Position numbers: made by a program. Of a stretch of DNA of 64,000 nucleotides, positions 15,001 through 36,000 are shown piece by piece; position 1 is the first letter of the stretch; each line of letters begins with the position of its first letter. This DNA is from Opitutales bacterium (GTDB lineage Bacteria; Verrucomicrobiota; Verrucomicrobiia; Opitutales; PNEW01), in the NCBI GenBank assembly GCA_965197745.1, contig CBDANS010000007.1:224001-288000 (forward strand), in the 5' to 3' direction.

Positions 15001-18000
15001 TGATGAAGTCACCGCCTGGATAAAAGAAAAGCCCGAGGATTTTGCCAGCGCTTTTATTTATATATGGGAATTATATATAAAGAGATAACATCAATATTCT
15101 CGCCCCCAAAGATTTATATGCTAAAGACTCCTTGCCTATATGAAAATATTTTAAGCGTTAGCACCTGCAACTATGAGACGATTATAGTCGTTGAGAAATG
15201 GATTTTGAAATAAATATCTGGGCACTCTGGATCCTCTGGTCGCTTCAGGGGCTATTCGGTTGGTTTAATGTTTTTATGTACCGAAAAAGAATGAGGTGGC
15301 AGGATGAACGTCTGGAAGCACAACTCGATAAACCGCCTCACCCGGCAGCTTTATTATCGCCAATGAAAGGGGTGCGCCACAATTTCGAACCTTATATAAA
15401 TGGATTGCTCAATCAGGATTATCCGGACTACCAGCTGATTTTCTCTGTTGAGTCAACACGCGAACCCCTTTACACCAAGCTTAGAGACAGGTTGGGGCTG
15501 AGCGATGAAAAATTAATCTGGAACCCAGGATTGGAGGCCGCCCCCGTGGGATCACCGGTGGTCTCGTCCGGGTTAAAGCGGGTGCAAATAGTCGTTGCCG
15601 GGATTTGTGAAACCGGCGCTCAAAAGGTGCATAATCAGCTCCAGGCATTAAAGGAGTTGCGCGAAGAAGATGCGCTTATCGCTGCTTGTGATGCTGATAT
15701 TCTACCCCCATTTGATTTGTTGGGAAAGCTACTCAAACCACTTAACCAGGGAACCCACATCGCATCGACCGGGTACCGTTGGATTATTCCTATGAACCAA
15801 AGACTCAGTGTGCTGACTGCAACCGTCATCAATGGATCGGTAGCTACGATGGGGGGGCCGGAGTGGTGTAACCTAATGTGGGGTGGGGCACACGCCTTAA
15901 CGAGGGAATTTCACGAAGAAATAAATCTATCTGAAAAATTTGTGGGCGCTTTTAATGATGACTTACAGACGGCCCACCACGTACGTAAAGAAGGTAAAAA
16001 AATTGCCTACATAAGGTCTCTCATGCTGCCCAGTCCCGAGGATTATGACTGGTCCATGATGTTTGAGTTTGGTTGGCGGCAATATTTTCATGTACGGGTA
16101 TATGCACCCTGGGCCTGGTGGTCGGGGCTATTTATTACGACCCTGTATCTCTGGGGATTGATCACCGCCTGGGGCGCATTAATGACGGGAAATCTGAAAG
16201 CCTTTATCCCCATTGCTCTCGTCTTTGTGCTTAATGAAATGCGCGCCCATGAGCGGATTCAATTGATTAAAATATTGTTCTCACCTGAGCATATAGAGGC
16301 GTTGAAACCCACTTTTTCCCTGGAACGATTTGGCACATTTTTCTGGATGTTCGTCCATTTCCTCACCGTCTGCCGTTCTGGAATGGGGCGGATCGTTACC
16401 TGGTCCGGCATTACTTACCGCGTTACCGGAAGACAAAAAACTGAAGTAATTTTAAGGAAGGAAATAAGTTAATTTTATATAGGGATATGCGTTTGTTTAT
16501 TATAGTCGCGAAAATCCACGCGGAAAAGAATAGCGTAGAGAACGGGAACAATCCCGAGGACGAGCAAAGTTGCGAACAATAATCCAAAAATAATCGCGGC
16601 TGCCATGGGTTGAAAAGTAGGGTTTCCTCTGAAGTATAGAGGGATAATACCGCCTATAGTCGTTATCGTAGTGAGGAGGATGGGGCGCACCCTGTTGAGT
16701 GACGCTTCGACGATGCTGTCCTGAGGCGAAAGTCCTCTCAAGTCGTTATTGATGCGGATACGGTCGATAAGAATGATCGCATTATTTACGACAATACCGA
16801 TGAGAGAGACTACGCCGACAAGAGTCATAAAGCCGAAAGGTTGTCGCGTAATTATTAAGCCGATTACGACACCGATGAGTCCCATCGGAACCGCGGACAT
16901 TATTATAAAAGTGCGCCGAAAAGATCGTGTCTGGCGTATGAGAAGAAGGACGATCAAAAAAGCGGTCCAGGGCAGCTTGTTGATAATAGACTTGTTGGCC
17001 CTTGCAGACTCCTCGCTCTCACCGCTAATGAGGATACTGTATTCATCTCCCCATGTATCTTTCTGCATTTTTATCCACTGCGTTAATTGTTTATCTATTT
17101 CTTTAGGATCGGCATTTTCTCGCAAGTCAGCTCGCACCGTAACCATTCGCTGATAATGTCGCCTGACGATTGAAATCGTCTCGCGGACTTCTTCTATTTC
17201 CGCTATGTCTCCAAGGGTAACGGTTGTCCCTGGTTTGATTCTTGAGTGAATATTCAGCGCTTTTATTTTTTCTATCTCGTTGTCACTGTCGACCATGGCG
17301 TGGACATTGATAGGGATAATCATGGTCCCATCGCGTATACTGTTAGCGGGGATGCCTGTGAGCAGGGATTGTAATGAAATCGCGACATCAAAGTGGGTGA
17401 TACGGGAGCGAAAAGCTTCCATTTCATTGATGACGACGCGGTATTTCTTTACCGGAGGCCCCCAATCATCATGTATATTGTAGATCCCTTGTAATGCGCC
17501 AAGTTTGTCTTTTACCTCATCGACAATATTGAACATCCCATCAATATCCTCTCCCAAGACACGAACTTTGATAGGATATCCAACGGTGGGGCCCGATTCC
17601 AGGGCACGGGCTCGAATTTGAGCCTCGGGTAATAAGGCAGTGCAATATTCCTCTATCTTATTGATCATCTCCGGGATCAGTTTAATCGACGTCAGGTTGA
17701 AGAGAAAGTAAGCATATTCGGGTTTACGTTCTACGGTTCGATGGTTAAGAATGAACCGTGGTGCATTTCTACCAATAAAAGTCGCCCAATTGGTAATACC
17801 TTGCCCGTCGTTTAAATCGGCGAGGAGATCTGATTCTACATAGGCGTCTATTGAACTTACAGCTTTATGTGTATATTCTATGTCTGTGCCCGCGGGAAAT
17901 TCAACTTCCAGGGTGATTATCGGTCTGTCCGAAGGAGGAAAAAATATTTTTGGGATATAGCGGAAACAATATAATGAACCCAAAAATAAAAGAAGGGTGA

Positions 18001-33000: not shown

Positions 33001-36000
33001 AATTACTGCTATCTTTTAAAAAAACTGACCCTGTTTCATGGAGATAAGAAAAAGCTGCTTTTAAAAAATCCCGCAAACACCGGTCGCATACGTTGGCTGC
33101 GGAGTATTTTTCCAGGCGCTAAGTTCATTCATATTCATCGCAATCCTTACACGGTCTATGCCTCAACCCTAAAGCATTTTAATAGAACCATGACGACTTT
33201 CGCCTGGCAGCCCTATGAGGGAATTGACTTTAATAAAATTACCCTGCGTCACTATCGCCTTCTCATGCAGCGTTACTTGGATGAGCGATCAACTATCCCC
33301 CCGGAAAACTTAATTGAGGTATCTATGGATGAAGTAGAGAAAGATGCGCCCGGGGTGATCGATAACATATACCGAAAATTTTCTTTGTCCAATCGGGATA
33401 GGGCGCTTGAAGCAATTAATTCATACTGCGAAGGACAGCGAAATTACCGTAAGAACAGTTATGTATTAAGCGGGGATCAAGTTGCTAATATAAATAAACA
33501 CTGGGACTTTACGTTGAAAGAATATGATTACGGAATGCCGGGTGAAATAAAGGTGGAAAACTGAATTTAGAGGCGATTCTTAACCAGCATTTCGACTACT
33601 TTCGGGTCCGCAAGAGTCGTCGTATCTCCTATCTCATCCGGTGCATTCTCCGCAATTTTTCTTAGAATGCGACGCATGATCTTTCCCGAGCGGGTTTTCG
33701 GCAGACCGGGTGAGAACTGCAGTTTATCAGGGGTGGCAATGGGTCCAATCTCGGAACGCACATGTTTTACCAGTTCCTGTTTTAAGTCATCGCTCCCTTC
33801 CACCCCTCCGATGAGCGTGACAAAAGCATAGAGAGATTGACCTTTTATGTCGTGGGGCATTGGGGCGACCGCTGCTTCTGCTACCATGGGATGACTGACT
33901 AAGGCGCTTTCAACTTCGGCTGTTCCAATCCGATGACCGGAGACATTGACAACATCATCGACGCGGCCCATCAGCCAGTAATCCCCATCACTATCAATAC
34001 GGCAACCATCGCCGGTAAAGTAGAGATCATTAAAGGTGTTAAAATATGTATCGATAAAGCGATCATGATCACCCCAGGTGGTACGCATTATCCCGGGCCA
34101 AGGTTTTTTGATACAGAGTTTACCGCCTTCATTGGGATTACATTCACTACCATCATCCCGCAATATTACAGGTTCGACTCCAAAGAAAGGGTGTGAAGCA
34201 CTTCCCGGTTTTAAAACGTGAGCGCCCGGATAGGGGGTAATCAAGTGACCCCCTGTTTCCGTTTGCCACCAGGTATCGACAATGGGACAAGAGCCATGAC
34301 CAATTTCCCGAAAATACCACATCCAGGCCTCTGGGTTGATCGGTTCTCCCACCGTCCCCAACAGCCGAAGTGAACTTAAATCATACTTAGCCGGCCATTC
34401 ATTGCCCTGGGCGATCAATGCGCGAATCACTGTAGGGGCGGTGTAGAACACCGTTGCCTTGTATTTTTCACATACCTGCCAAAAACGGCCTGGATCAGGA
34501 TAAGTAGGGACCCCTTCGAACATGAGACTCGTCGAACCGTTGGCCAGCGGCCCGTAGACAATGTAACTATGTCCTGTCACCCATCCAATGTCAGCTGAAC
34601 ACCAATATATGTCATCCTCGTGAATATCAAAAATATATTTATGCGTGAGACTGGTGTGTAGGAGGTAACCTGCCGTGGAATGAACCACCCCTTTCGGTTT
34701 ACCCGTTGAACCCGAGGTGTAGAGAATAAAGAGAATCGTTTCGGCACTTAAAGCCTCAGGCGGGCAGTCTTCGTTTACCTTGCTCATTTCATCGTGATAC
34801 CACAGATCGCGACCTTCAATGAAATCACACGGTTCATCATTACGCTTAACCAAAATGACCTTTTCGATAGAGGGTGTATTTTCGAGAGCCTTATCAGAGA
34901 TATTTTTCAGGAGGATAAATTTTCCTGAACGCAAAGCTACATTGGAGGTGATTAGTATTTTACAATCAGAATCATTAATACGATCTGCCAGTGAATCCGC
35001 GCTGAAACCCCCGAAAACCACAGAGTGGATAGCGCCGATACGGGCACAACCAAGCATTACGATAGGCAACTCGACTATCATTGGCAGATATATCGCAACC
35101 CGGTCACCTTTTTTTATGCCATGTGCTTTTAGCACGTTGGCAAATTTACAAACTTCTTTATGTAATTCCTCGTAGGTAAGTGTCCGCGTGTCTTCTTCAG
35201 GTTCTCCCTGCCAGATCAGTGCCGGTTTTGTCCGTCGATCGGTTTTCAAGTGTCGATCAAGACAGTTTATGGTAATATTTATTTCACCATCTTCAAACCA
35301 TGTATGCTCTATTTTACGTGCCTTGGAATCCCAGGTATATTTGCATGCGGTGCCAGGCGCTTTAATCCAGTCCAATGTCTCAGCCTGCTCTAACCAGAAA
35401 GCATCGGGATCATTTACCGAACGTTCATACATTTCGCAGTATTTTTGATTATCAATATGCGCTTTCTCCACGAATTGCTCGGAGGGGGGAAAGGTGCGCT
35501 CCTCGGTCATTAATGAATCGGTCGATATAGTCTGTTTTTCTTCTGCCATAATAAAATTTCCGAATTTATAGAGTTAGAGAAAAAATACCGTCACAAATGC
35601 TATTTTCTGTCAACCGTTCGTAGCTATTTCAACGGCTTTCTAGCTTCTACCCTTGAAAAACCGTTTCGGTGAAAAATATTTTTCCGGGTAATAATCCGGA
35701 CAATCGATGTCCAGGATCTTGAAAACAATAAACTGAGTGGCGAGAAAGGATACCCCTGAACCCGAACCTGCCATACCGCCTACGATATAAAGGCGCTTAT
35801 TGTCCTGGAGACCAATGAGCGGAAATTCATCAGGCGTCATCCCCACCGTGCCGCTCCACTCATTGGTAACGCGTATCCGGGTTATTCCAAAAAGGGTTTT
35901 TAAAAAAGCAGACACGTAATTGGTAATAAATCGTGAGGGCTGATTCAGCCCCGCTTCATGATCGGGGACTTTAGACATATCCGAACCAAATAGGATACCG

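Follow-up and report, generated by a model that had tools for sequence, protein, structure and literature searches.

We consider it probable that one gene of the window (the whole stretch of DNA analysed, 64,000 nucleotides from a bacterium of the order Opitutales) codes for a bacterial polyketide synthase (PKS), single-module and fully reducing, that stands alone and continues, in the same protein, into one glycine-specific NRPS module and a release domain of the TAD family, and that it takes part, with its neighbors, in making a glycosylated and sulfated lipid on an N-acylglycine base, which is then exported.

Structure of the Synthase Gene

The ORF listing of the window revealed one reading frame at 20320..32418 (+), whose ATG at 20335 gives a protein of 4027 aa (whole gene 20335..32418, +). 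According to Pfam and to phmmer against PDB sequences, the domain order is KS-AT-DH-cMT-ER-KR-ACP-C-A-T, followed by an end domain of 438 aa; the ORF map and the Pfam coordinates agree, as the survey's finding had it, on a single protein with this order. Each of the Pfam domains named from KS to A has E <= 1e-19, PP-binding has two matches, and motif inspection found the catalytic motifs of KS, AT, DH, cMT, ER, KR, ACP, C, and T. With domain matches of this strength, a frame that stays open over 12 kb of DNA at 45% G+C is far beyond chance. The C domain is the sole one in the genome, which harbors one further PKS-like KS, on another contig; hence, the synthase has no partner assembly line. The genome also encodes an APS kinase and a PPTase, as supplies for the pathway.

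The PKS Half and Its Relatives

Pfam, motifs, and PDB matches place KS (residues 7-382) and AT (543-858, with the motifs GHSVGE and YAFH) at 20353..22908 (+), and the YAFH motif is presumably that of a malonyl-specific AT. The same evidence defines a full reducing loop at 23044..27393 (+), consisting of DH (904-1182), cMT (1391-1566), a KR-like structural region (1610-1720), ER (1856-2152), and KR (2175-2353), in which SAM and NADPH motifs were found. The ACP (residues 2458-2520; 27706..27894, +) was recognized by Pfam and by its GLDSL serine motif.

The synthase had been described as fungal-style, with fungal rather than bacterial affinity. This affinity is not borne out, since all the regions tested (KS-AT, reducing region, and A domain) score higher against bacterial than against fungal proteins. 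KS-AT reaches 739 bits with CurL, 714 with PikAI, 657 with DEBS, and 653 with MAS, versus 517 and 490 with LovB and psoA on the fungal side; for the reducing region, the values are 414 (MAS), 308 (CurK ER), and 262 (CurJ cMT) versus 206 (LovB) and 118 (psoA), and for the whole A domain 574 (LgrA) versus 180 (psoA). As bacterial synthases (CurL, MAS, CurJ, LgrA) prevail in each tested region, the term "fungal-style" covers the domain order only. The fungal iterative PKS-NRPS hybrids (psoA, 9x2c; pynA, pytA) do share the same KS-AT-DH-cMT-ER-KR-ACP-C-A-T order in one single-module protein of about 4000 aa, but they end in an R/Dieckmann domain, whereas the synthase studied here ends in a TAD; the likeness is thus architectural. 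The closest solved relatives of the PKS half are MAS and the cyanobacterial Cur and Jam modules. MAS lacks the cMT that is present here, its methyl branches deriving from methylmalonyl, and the Cur and Jam modules belong to long assembly lines, while this PKS half stands alone.

The NRPS Module and Its Glycine-Type Code

The condensation domain (residues 2551-3005, motif HHIVSD; Pfam and motif) lies at 27985..29349 (+), the adenylation domain (3029-3500; Pfam and code residues) at 29419..30834 (+), and the T domain, recognized from the second PP-binding stretch and from GGDSL at 3554-3558, at 30913..31110 (+), with approximate limits. The earlier description had left the specificity of the A domain unanalyzed; the code read here, DILQLGLIWK, is of the glycine type. 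It comprises residues 3213, 3214, 3217, 3256, 3279, 3281, 3303, 3311, 3312, and 3500, the Stachelhaus positions having been placed by sequence landmarks rather than by alignment to GrsA. The code is retained in all 82 of the examined homologs of about 4000 aa, with the pattern DILQ[L/F]G[L/M][V/I]WK, and the pocket stretch scores 132 bits against 4zxh and 130 against 5u89, compared with 62 for LgrA. Codes given for glycine in sections of the literature include DILQLGMIWK and DILQLGVI (PMC12283262, PMC5466765). On these code positions, the A domain is predicted to load glycine.

The TAD-Family End Domain

Residues 3590-4027 (31102..32415, +), assigned by phmmer against PDB sequences and by motifs, matched no family in the Pfam search. 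The phmmer search retrieved 9e4s_A (E 8.5e-89, 301.7 bits) and 9e4x_A (1.4e-88) over query residues 51-431, with E values and limits identical to those reported before; a previous count of 326 longer proteins carrying the domain was not reproduced, since 206 were obtained at E <= 1e-3 among proteins of 2214-7048 aa. The motifs are TTG (3757-3759), GLGSIG (3791-3796), Asp3817, DDSFP (3884-3888), and Cys3956; the TTG, GxGxxG, Asp, and Cys are kept in 120 out of 120 end-domain proteins examined and correspond to the TTG, GxGxxG, NAD-selecting Asp, and catalytic Cys named for the TAD (bioRxiv 10.1101/2024.10.28.620694). The same work relates the TAD structurally to acyl-ACP reductase, and NCBIfam gave a weak match of the end domain to such an enzyme (AcACP_reductase, E 3.6e-4).

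Both the motifs and the position, about 400 C-terminal residues after a carrier protein, are common to the TAD-ended NRPS lines of marine cyanobacteria (CarI for carmabin, VatR for vatiamide, HcaD for hectoramide; Rankin et al., bioRxiv 10.1101/2024.10.28.620694). Unlike in those multi-module peptide lines, the upstream part consists here of one fully reducing PKS module and one glycine module, and the Gly of the DDSGP loop is replaced by Phe. Rankin et al. described an SSN cluster 3, rich in Verrucomicrobiota, with Tyr in place of Asp2170; we found this Tyr in 68/82 homologs, while the synthase of the window and its 13 closest relatives retain Asp (DDSFP). In the same survey of the family no gene steadily co-occurred with the TAD at a distance of up to ten genes, whereas here it is inherited along with a GT21 enzyme and a sulfotransferase. 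The family as such has no demonstrated function: Rankin et al. detected no substrate release by the CarI or VatR TAD under any condition they tried, be it addition of NAD(H), metals, ammonia, or amino acids of any kind, so that release as a primary amide by the end domain is unproven.

A terminal glycine module ahead of an unusual redox domain is also a feature of glycine-dependent amide formation of the myxothiazol type, where glycine codes of the DILQLG..WK type recur. In that system, however, an embedded monooxygenase cleaves the glycine, with a TE coming next; Pfam finds no monooxygenase domain in our synthase, and the known TAD lines do not lose their last amino acid.

Neighboring Genes and Their Co-Inheritance

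The gene at 15198..16472 (+) codes for a GT21-family membrane glycosyltransferase (GT) of 424 aa, identified by Pfam (Glyco_transf_21, 24.5 bits with a cut-off of 21.7), by profile comparison with PDB, and by an AF2 model (pLDDT 96.3), whose closest folds are membrane GT2 synthases. A profile of 66 sequences, with invariant DAD (165-167), DD (254-255), and RQY (294-296), matched ceramide glucosyltransferase 26qf_A at E 6e-25 (profile 5-393, chain 16-390); judged by sequence, the GT and that enzyme are related over their full length. GT21 enzymes are described as lipid glycosyltransferases in the part of the literature consulted, where bacterial members also act on diacylglycerol (PMC8231724); therefore, the GT of the window could serve another lipid.

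Divergent from the synthase, at 16475..19645 (−), lies a gene for an RND permease of 1056 aa, identified by Pfam. Of its previous labeling as an MMPL/RND exporter, the RND part stands, mainly as AcrB-type (ACR_tran, E 8.5e-135, 451 bits), the MMPL match being minor (1.1e-11, 44.7 bits). No adaptor gene adjoins it. In the divergent intergenic region of 690 bp (19646..20334, from the ORF map), the Rfam search found no family and promoter-like sites did not stand out (4 found versus 4.3 expected in shuffles).

Downstream, starting 24 nt past the synthase stop, a gene at 32443..33564 (+) encodes a Sulfotransfer_3 sulfotransferase of 373 aa (Pfam, 104.4 bits). Its profile matched PDB entries 2zq5 (4.8e-15) and 2z6v (9.6e-9), which we take to be mycobacterial sulfotransferases, and 4gox at just 2e-4. 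It lies immediately 3' of the synthase in 5/5 other genomes and in 10 out of 40 loci with sufficient flank, among them loci from either order and with either loop type.

The distribution of these genes was checked in 41 related genomes from 38 families and in 81 genomes around one Verrucomicrobiales carrier. In the former set, the TAD is carried by 7 genomes belonging to 4 families; the GT is present in 7/7 carriers and in 0/34 others, the sulfotransferase in all 7 carriers with 2 weaker matches besides, and RND matches of 52-75% identity, i.e., at the orthologue level, occur in precisely the same 7 genomes, all other hits being at most 34% identical. In the latter set, with 44 carriers, the sulfotransferase occurs in 43 of them versus 6/37 non-carriers and the GT in 41 versus 3/37, a pattern that comes down essentially to a single clade possessing the three genes together and 32 genomes lacking all of them, related genomes not being independent. 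In the Verrucomicrobiales set, no protein corresponds to the RND permease at more than 32% identity. The order GT-RND-synthase-sulfotransferase is kept in the genus of the window and in a sister genus. In Verrucomicrobiales, where the synthase is single-copy and present in 55/251 genomes, GT and sulfotransferase are mostly unlinked to it, and most loci show housekeeping genes at its flanks and no other biosynthetic genes nearby; GT-sulfotransferase pairs apart from the synthase occur in 6 genomes. Since GT, sulfotransferase, and RND share the distribution of the synthase even where unlinked, the earlier idea of a locus for lipid export, sulfation, and glycosylation gains strength.

Proposed Pathway and Alternative Explanations

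From the domain content, motifs, glycine-type code, homologies, and co-occurrence described above, we infer each chemical step, the product and its location, any iterative use of the module, and the glycosyl and sulfate acceptors. The AT would load malonyl units, and a saturated chain would arise through KS, KR, DH, and ER, with methyl branches introduced by the cMT; growth may be iterative from a short starter or may prolong a fatty acyl primer that primary metabolism supplies. The C domain would join the acyl-ACP to glycyl-S-T, giving N-acylglycyl-S-T, and the end domain would take the chain onto Cys3956, beside bound NAD(H), and release it. By family precedent, a primary amide is a tentative prediction, somewhat short of an even chance; a reductive release of the kind known from the related acyl-ACP reductase, with an aldehyde or alcohol as product, is rather unlikely, and other chemistry would account for the rest. 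The GT21 enzyme and the PAPS-dependent sulfotransferase may then decorate the product, which the RND permease would export in the order of the window, Opitutales. The end product would be a glycosylated, sulfated lipid with an anchor derived from N-acylglycine, probably in the cell envelope.

An N-acylglycinamide has no obvious hydroxyl for either decorating enzyme; hence, the amide and the tailoring fit poorly together, unless the chain keeps one. Reductive release would provide this acceptor: the thioester would give an aldehyde and then an N-acylethanolamine with the ceramide head HO-CH2-CH2-NH-acyl, glycosylated by the GT21 enzyme and sulfated on the sugar, i.e., a sulfatide-like lipid. 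The relation to acyl-ACP reductase, the NCBIfam match, the full-length homology of the GT with ceramide glucosyltransferase, and the co-inheritance of GT and sulfotransferase point this way, as does a precedent in mycobacterial glycopeptidolipids, which, as far as the consulted part of the source describes them, end in a glycosylated amino alcohol and are MmpL-exported (PMC5996870). We nonetheless judge the full scheme unlikely: all three TAD pathways of known product yield primary amides, the CarI and VatR TADs released nothing in vitro with NAD(H), this fold has no precedent for carrying out two reductions in a row, and the usual domain for reductive release is an SDR-type R, which a relative of the PKS half from a planctomycete possesses. 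An equally improbable scenario is a secreted bioactive lipo-amino-acid amide like the cyanobacterial products, with sulfotransferase and GT as ordinary tailoring, resistance, or export-tagging enzymes. The known TAD pathways are all natural-product lines, the synthase is patchy in the order of the window (7/41), and an RND pump adjoins it; yet, a single-copy gene present in 44/81 and 55/251 genomes, among housekeeping genes, is more in keeping with a cell component under stable inheritance than with a mobile cluster.

As for chain growth, the PKS half might act once, or very few times, extending and alpha-methylating a long FAS acyl primer before glycine attachment. This is possible, at clearly less than an even chance: KS-AT is closest to the non-iterative modular CurL, PikAI, and DEBS, the same domain set forms ordinary single-use modules in cyanobacterial lines, and the reducing region matches best with MAS, an enzyme that starts from long acyl primers. 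MAS is itself iterative, however, the conserved gene set lacks a loading domain, a FAAL, and an acyl-CoA ligase, and in other phyla the same PKS half ends in TE, R, or C-A-T-TE, with partner modules absent from the loci examined. Lastly, GT, sulfotransferase, and RND might be unrelated to the synthase, which alone would make N-acylglycinamide or N-acylglycine, their shared distribution reflecting common descent. The unlinked genes of most Verrucomicrobiales carriers, the kinship of the genomes compared, and diacylglycerol as a possible GT21 substrate would agree with this, but we regard it as very improbable, given that all four genes turn up together in 4 distinct families out of 38 with neither GT nor orthologue-level RND in the 34 non-carriers, that the sulfotransferase directly follows the synthase stop in both orders and loop types, and that GT-sulfotransferase pairs exist in 6 genomes.

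The preferred pathway to a sulfated, glycosylated N-acylglycine lipid resembles in outline that of mycobacterial glycopeptidolipids, where, in the part of the description consulted, an NRPS joins a lipid chain to amino acids, the head is glycosylated, and pumps of the RND superfamily export the product to the envelope (PMC5996870); this is a whole-system likeness by description. In that pathway, the work is split among the proteins Pks, Mps1, and Mps2, the peptide part is a tripeptide, the terminus is an amino alcohol, and the glycosyltransferases are Gtf enzymes of the GT1 type; here, a single protein with a TAD at its end would add just one glycine, and the glycosyltransferase belongs to GT21. 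The predicted core, N-acylated glycine, is also found in the glycine lipids (GlsB route) of Bacteroidota, among other aminolipids, but these are built by N-acyltransferases from 3-hydroxy fatty acids; for a polyketide or NRPS route, the aminolipid review has 0 occurrences of either word (PMC12971839). The co-inheritance of these genes in several lineages of Verrucomicrobiota points to an undescribed sulfated glycolipid.

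Organization of the Synthase Gene and Its Neighbours

A single open reading frame, 20320..32418 (+), accounts for the synthase; from the ATG at position 20335 it encodes a protein of 4027 residues. According to Pfam, this protein comprises KS (residues 7-382), AT (543-858), DH (904-1182), cMT (1391-1566), a KR-like structural region (1610-1720), ER (1856-2152), KR (2175-2353), ACP (2458-2520), C (2551-3005), A (3029-3500), and a second carrier (T) domain (about 3527-3592). Active-site motifs were found in the KS, AT, DH, cMT, ER, KR, ACP, C, and T domains. The T domain lies directly upstream of the end domain (residues 3590-4027), and no Pfam family matched these last 438 residues. 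The survey's finding of a one-protein order KS-AT-DH-cMT-ER-KR-ACP-C-A-T with an unusual 438-residue end was thus borne out by the frame and the Pfam assignments, and the ORF map and Pfam equally confirmed the three flanking genes that it had reported: a GT21-like glycosyltransferase gene (GT, 15198-16472, +), an RND permease gene (RND, 16475-19645, -), and a Sulfotransfer_3 sulfotransferase gene (ST, 32443-33564, +), the last of which begins 24 nt past the synthase stop codon.

The genome to which the window belongs (G000) encodes no C domain besides that of the synthase and no other multi-domain PKS, and it encodes an APS kinase and a PPTase. Its only other PKS-like KS is found outside the window, on a different contig (C5:309828-310589), in a 607-aa frame scoring 301 bits to PF00109. 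Rfam gave no match within the window, and a promoter scan of the divergent RND-synthase intergenic region performed no better than shuffles.

The Specificity Code of the A Domain

The specificity code of the A domain is DILQLGLIWK, its positions having been placed via landmark motifs according to the GrsA numbering, and not by an alignment. When the pocket stretch alone (151 aa) was compared with the PDB, the best matches were 4zxh/4zxi (132 bits) and 5u89 (130 bits), followed by 8www (104 bits) and LgrA (62 bits). We take 4zxh/4zxi and 5u89 to be glycine-activating; the latter is identical to the synthase at the nine pocket positions covered by the alignment. The literature search did not retrieve the exact code DILQLGLIWK, and found the shorter DILQLG; in the available text of two papers, DILQLGMIWK and DILQLGVI are glycine codes, and positions 299, 322, and 330 vary among Gly codes (PMC12283262, PMC5466765). 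Moreover, DILQ[L/F]G[L/M][V/I]WK was present in all 82 homologues of 3900-4150 aa among the end-domain matches listed. Judged from its sequence, the code can be assigned to the glycine type.

Bacterial Affinity of the PKS-NRPS Portion

Fungal HR-PKS-NRPS hybrids, among which the survey had found the best Swiss-Prot matches of the synthase up to its T domain, share with it the one-protein order KS-AT-DH-cMT-ER-KR-ACP-C-A-T. A terminal reductase/Dieckmann domain is the usual ending of these fungal enzymes, whereas the synthase has neither NAD_binding_4 nor TE at its end, and carries a terminal amidation domain (TAD) instead. The comparison with solved structures did not support a fungal kinship, since bacterial enzymes obtained the higher scores in all three parts compared. 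For KS-AT, the bacterial CurL, PikAI, DEBS, and MAS reached 739, 714, 657, and 653 bits, respectively, versus 517 for LovB, 490 for psoA, and about 370-380 for animal FAS. For the reducing region, the scores were 414 (MAS), 369 (the spinosyn-type module 3slk), 308 (CurK ER), and 262 (CurJ cMT) versus 206 (LovB) and 118 (psoA), and for the A domain 574 (LgrA) versus 180 (psoA).

A mid-gene alignment scan of species-representative genomes returned 78 loci. The mid-gene region shares 33-41% identity with cyanobacterial and planctomycete PKSs; KS-AT and ER-KR share 53-56% with proteins from Nostoc, Scytonema, and Pirellulaceae, approximately the same as with the Verrucomicrobiales homologues. The stand-alone single-module relatives end in ACP-TE (Nostoc), ACP-R (Rhodopirellula), or C-A-T-TE (Pirellulaceae), the last with the A code DLKNFGTDIK, which is not of the glycine type. 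These alternative ends place the PKS half within a bacterial set of fully reducing synthases with exchangeable ends, and the sequence comparisons indicate that the synthase resembles the fungal hybrids in the order of its domains and not through descent. As to the Nostoc relative, the locus L088:6230-17433 harbors a stand-alone KS-AT-DH-cMT-ER-KR-ACP-TE protein in a 2863-aa frame, followed by a TauD-family dioxygenase and an HlyD-like protein, an arrangement with close counterparts elsewhere among the Nostocales loci.

The End Domain Belongs to the TAD Family

The end domain matched the PDB chains 9e4s_A (E 8.5e-89; chain residues 39-416) and 9e4x_A (E 1.4e-88) over query residues 51-431, the match reported by the survey being reproduced with identical E values. 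The survey had further inferred that both entries belong to the TAD study of Rankin et al. (bioRxiv 10.1101/2024.10.28.620694; hereafter, the preprint). The codes 9E4S and 9E4X are absent from the preprint text, and the literature search did not retrieve them in this sense either; in the PDB alignment, the 9e4s_A motifs lie at positions 156 (TTG), 190 (GxGxxG), 216 (Asp), 283 (DDSGP), and 352 (Cys), and the CarI motif residues in the available text of the preprint are 2042, 2076, 2102, 2169, and 2238. The inference fits, with CarI as the source of the chain, because, counted on the alignment, the two series differ by a constant offset of 1886. In the same text, the N-terminal subdomain of the TAD has a macrodomain fold and the TAD binds ADP-ribose. 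As a separate observation, the gene immediately upstream of GT encodes a NUDIX hydrolase (14585-15088), an arrangement found again in the sister genus only.

In the synthase, the corresponding motifs are TTG 3757-3759, GLGSIG 3791-3796, Asp3817 (the NAD(H)-selecting Asp of the family), DDSFP 3884-3888, and Cys3956. With the end domain as query, 206 matches were obtained from proteins of 2214-7048 aa, 120 of them being listed. In all of these 120, the Cys, TTG, and Asp are invariant, as are the two outer Gly residues of GxGxxG, the middle one being replaced in four proteins. The loop equivalent to DDSGP (Asp-Asp-Ser-Gly-cisPro) is DDSFP in the synthase (Gly to Phe), DYSFP in 68 of the 82 homologues of about 4000 aa, and DDSGP, DDSAP, DDSSP, or DDSYP in other contexts of the TAD among the matches listed. 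An Asp in this loop is shared by the synthase and its 13 closest relatives among these matches, and the Tyr is, in the available preprint text, a feature of its Verrucomicrobiota-rich cluster 3.

Some TAD proteins of about 2500 aa have the order KS-AT-DH-ER-KR-ACP-TAD and the loop DDSYP (our protein handles P0092, P0093, P0095, P0098-P0100, P0102, P0104, P0107-P0109, P0115, and P0118). Since they lack an NRPS module, the substrate of their TAD would be a plain acyl-ACP, as it is for acyl-ACP reductase; they thus bear on whether the TAD family only amidates.

Phylogenetic Distribution of the Synthase

Among the 120 matches listed (of 206), 82 have the Pfam set of the synthase and a length of about 4000 aa, and every taxon label given for them is Verrucomicrobiota. 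The closest relatives of the window protein among the matches listed are Opitutales MAGs, and the Tyr-loop group consists of Verrucomicrobiales/Akkermansiaceae. The end domain was retrieved from 7 of 41 genomes (4 of 38 families) in the set of relatives of G000, and from 44 of the 81 genomes around the Verrucomicrobiales carrier G432, always as one copy; in the latter set, all positives fall within the first 49 rows, an order that may not follow kinship. Of the 251 genomes sampled from the order to which G432 belongs, 55 harbor it, and in the 'phylum' sample around G000 it was found in 1 of 401 (G000 only). The discrepancy between the even 'phylum' sample (0/400 other genomes) and the G432 order (55/251) may reflect sampling or grouping. 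Furthermore, several matches in the G432 set (genomes G457, G466, G478, and G480) contain one stop.

Helper Enzymes

The GT protein scored 24.5 bits against PF13506 (cut-off 21.7), and homologues were retrieved down to E 2e-12. Many homologues at 29-33% identity carry the name ceramide glucosyltransferase in their source records. A single-sequence search of the PDB gave nothing significant for GT, whereas a 66-sequence profile aligned over its whole length with ceramide glucosyltransferase 26qf_A (E 6e-25); second came a generic GT2 (2e-9), over the first 150 residues only. The DAD at 165-167, a DxD motif, is invariant. In Foldseek, the AF2 model (pLDDT 96.3) was nearest to GT2 synthases integrated in the membrane, the TM-scores being about 0.5-0.6; the PDB copy used did not return ceramide glucosyltransferase, being without those new entries. 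The acceptors of the GT21 family are ceramide or diacylglycerol; in the available text of a further source, GT21 enzymes glycosylate lipid hydroxyls and the bacterial members use diacylglycerol (PMC8231724). Many Verrucomicrobiales carriers have GT in a frame of 650-860 aa (for instance, at the loci L100:2455-4779, L101:2179-4458, and L102:2202-4409), and the C-terminal extension of about 330 aa in these long forms matched no Pfam family and gave no usable Atlas match. In one carrier (G028:C2:1218821-1220064), the GT homologue is split into two adjacent frames (335 and 151 aa), which may represent a frameshift or a broken gene.

ST scored 104.4 bits against PF13469 (cut-off 27), and its loop GHWRSGTTHLHN (residues 74-85), presumably the one that binds the 5'-phosphosulfate, does not vary among 17 sequences. 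The ST profile matched 2zq5 (4.8e-15), 2z6v (9.6e-9), and 4gox (2e-4). An activating sulfotransferase of the CurM/OLS type, which is embedded in a PKS and sulfates a beta-hydroxyl for decarboxylative elimination, was considered and rejected: the likeness to 4gox is weak with the profile and absent with the single sequence, and ST has no TE partner.

The putative exporter had been described as MMPL/RND. By its domain matches it is chiefly of the AcrB type (ACR_tran, 451 bits over residues 31-1040), with a minor MMPL component (44.7 bits); NCBIfam subfamily scores are below their cut-offs. The ORF map of the window contains no membrane-fusion or outer-membrane gene adjoining RND. A glycine-zipper lipoprotein and a DUF4136 protein are encoded near RND in the window (13042-14409), and also about 9 kb from RND in a genome of another family (G020; L006:18449-19596).

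Adjacency and Co-Inheritance of the Helper Genes

In all five other genomes of the window's order, the gene immediately downstream of the synthase is ST, as it is in 10 of the 40 loci whose flank measures 1.2 kb or more. The loop state was ruled out as the determinant of this adjacency, which holds for 5/5 loci with the Asp loop but 5/35 with the Tyr loop. RND adjoins the synthase in the four genomes whose contig extends far enough, and the only other genomes in which GT adjoins the synthase locus are those of the sister genus. Housekeeping genes make up the conserved surroundings of the synthase in the main Verrucomicrobiales group, and the available text of the preprint reports no gene that consistently co-occurs at a distance of up to ten genes from the TAD.

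The presence of the helper genes follows the synthase also where they are unlinked, with counts that compare related, and not independent, genomes. In the G000 set, GT occurs in exactly the seven carriers (unlinked in three) and in 0/34 of the others; RND matches at 52-75% identity define exactly the same seven, all others being at 34% or less; and ST is harbored by the seven carriers, with two weaker matches (33-34% identity) besides. In the G432 set, ST is present in 43/44 carriers, the missing one being a 1.8-Mb assembly, and in 6/37 non-carriers (four at E 1e-51 to 1e-57); GT is present in 41/44 carriers and 3/37 non-carriers, with no match anywhere in the last 32 rows; no RND counterpart above 32% identity was retrieved among the nine candidates scored per genome. 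Moreover, GT-ST pairs apart from the synthase were found in six genomes.

Two genes further downstream were rejected as members because their distribution does not follow the carriers. The DAO-family oxidoreductase (35640-37205), a candidate ammonia source, is present in the sister genus, but three further carrier families gave no match at E <= 1e-10. The acetyl-CoA synthetase (33567-35549), which meets the NCBIfam equivalog cut-off and is conserved only with local synteny, was treated as housekeeping. Neither malate dehydrogenase, GH77, and helicase, the conserved neighbours in Verrucomicrobiales synthase loci, nor LpxB, M28 peptidase, DprA, and topoisomerase, encoded around unlinked ST genes, are plausible pathway genes. 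The coincidence in four Opitutales families, together with the adjacencies synthase-ST, ST-GT, and GT-RND-synthase, makes a shared pathway of synthase, ST, GT, and RND the most economical reading of the gene data.

Proposed Pathway and Release of the Product

In the pathway proposed here, the single PKS module would yield a saturated, methyl-branched acyl-ACP, either by iteration or by elongation of a fatty acyl primer. The sequence cannot tell these two modes apart; the pointers to repeated use are indirect, namely the single module, the absence of a partner PKS or C domain, and MAS as best match for the reducing region. The C domain would join the chain to glycyl-S-T, and the end domain would load it on Cys3956, beside NAD(H), and then release it. 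The GT21 enzyme and ST would decorate the released product, which in Opitutales the RND pump would export.

The release is the weak step, because a glycinamide end would offer no obvious acceptor to the GT21 enzyme or the sulfotransferase. In the available text of the preprint, no substrate was seen to be released by the TAD, whether it was given NAD(H), metals, ammonia, or any one of the 20 amino acids, and a reduction-first route is discussed as an alternative; 'amidation' by the TAD is therefore only a hypothesis, which goes back to what three closely related lines of cyanobacteria produce. We consider a primary amide a plausible product of the synthase, at somewhat below even chances. A reductive release, to which we would give a rather low probability, would lead to an N-acylethanolamine, the HO-CH2-CH2-NH-acyl head of ceramide; it would create the acceptor hydroxyl that fits a homologue of ceramide glucosyltransferase, and it has a parallel in the glycosylated amino-alcohol end of mycobacterial glycopeptidolipids, as far as the available text of that source goes (PMC5996870). 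On the other hand, the known TAD products are amides, and the same preprint text reports no NADH-dependent release in vitro. The remaining probability falls to release chemistries that are neither amide-forming nor reductive. The fullest form of the reductive scheme is a sulfatide-like envelope glycolipid made without sphingolipid chemistry, in which the one megasynthase would make a methyl-branched acyl chain, attach glycine, and, through its acyl-ACP-reductase-like end domain, reduce the thioester to an N-acylethanolamine, a minimal ceramide mimic, which the homologue of ceramide glucosyltransferase would then glycosylate and the sulfotransferase sulfate; we regard it as unlikely. If the N-acylethanolamine reading were true, the 'terminal amidation domain' family would include reductive release enzymes.

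Significance for Verrucomicrobiota

The TAD family and its presence in Verrucomicrobiota are already in print, in the available text of the preprint. Our literature search found no account of the complete domain arrangement including the glycine module, of its stable inheritance in particular lineages, or of the co-inherited GT21, ST, and RND genes, part of which the supplementary neighbourhood figures of the preprint may show. Searches for Verrucomicrobia PKS-NRPS-sulfotransferase systems retrieved only unrelated trans-AT clusters, e.g., palmerolide and lasonolide, and those for aminolipids, sulfolipids, and glycine lipids of Verrucomicrobia/Opitutales gave no description of the synthase system; in an aminolipid review (PMC12971839), the terms 'polyketide' and 'NRPS' are both absent.

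The synthase is single-copy and common in the environmentally widespread Verrucomicrobiales (55/251 sampled species genomes and 44/81 around one carrier), and it is found again, accompanied by the same helper genes, in four families of Opitutales. For the chemistry of the TAD, it provides a simpler test case, with an easily made N-acylglycyl thioester as substrate, and the enzymes acting after the synthase constrain the identity of the released end group. A megasynthase-made, glycosylated, and sulfated amino-acid lipid would represent an undescribed lipid class for Verrucomicrobiota, and would add a route to aminolipids that is not listed in the current review literature.
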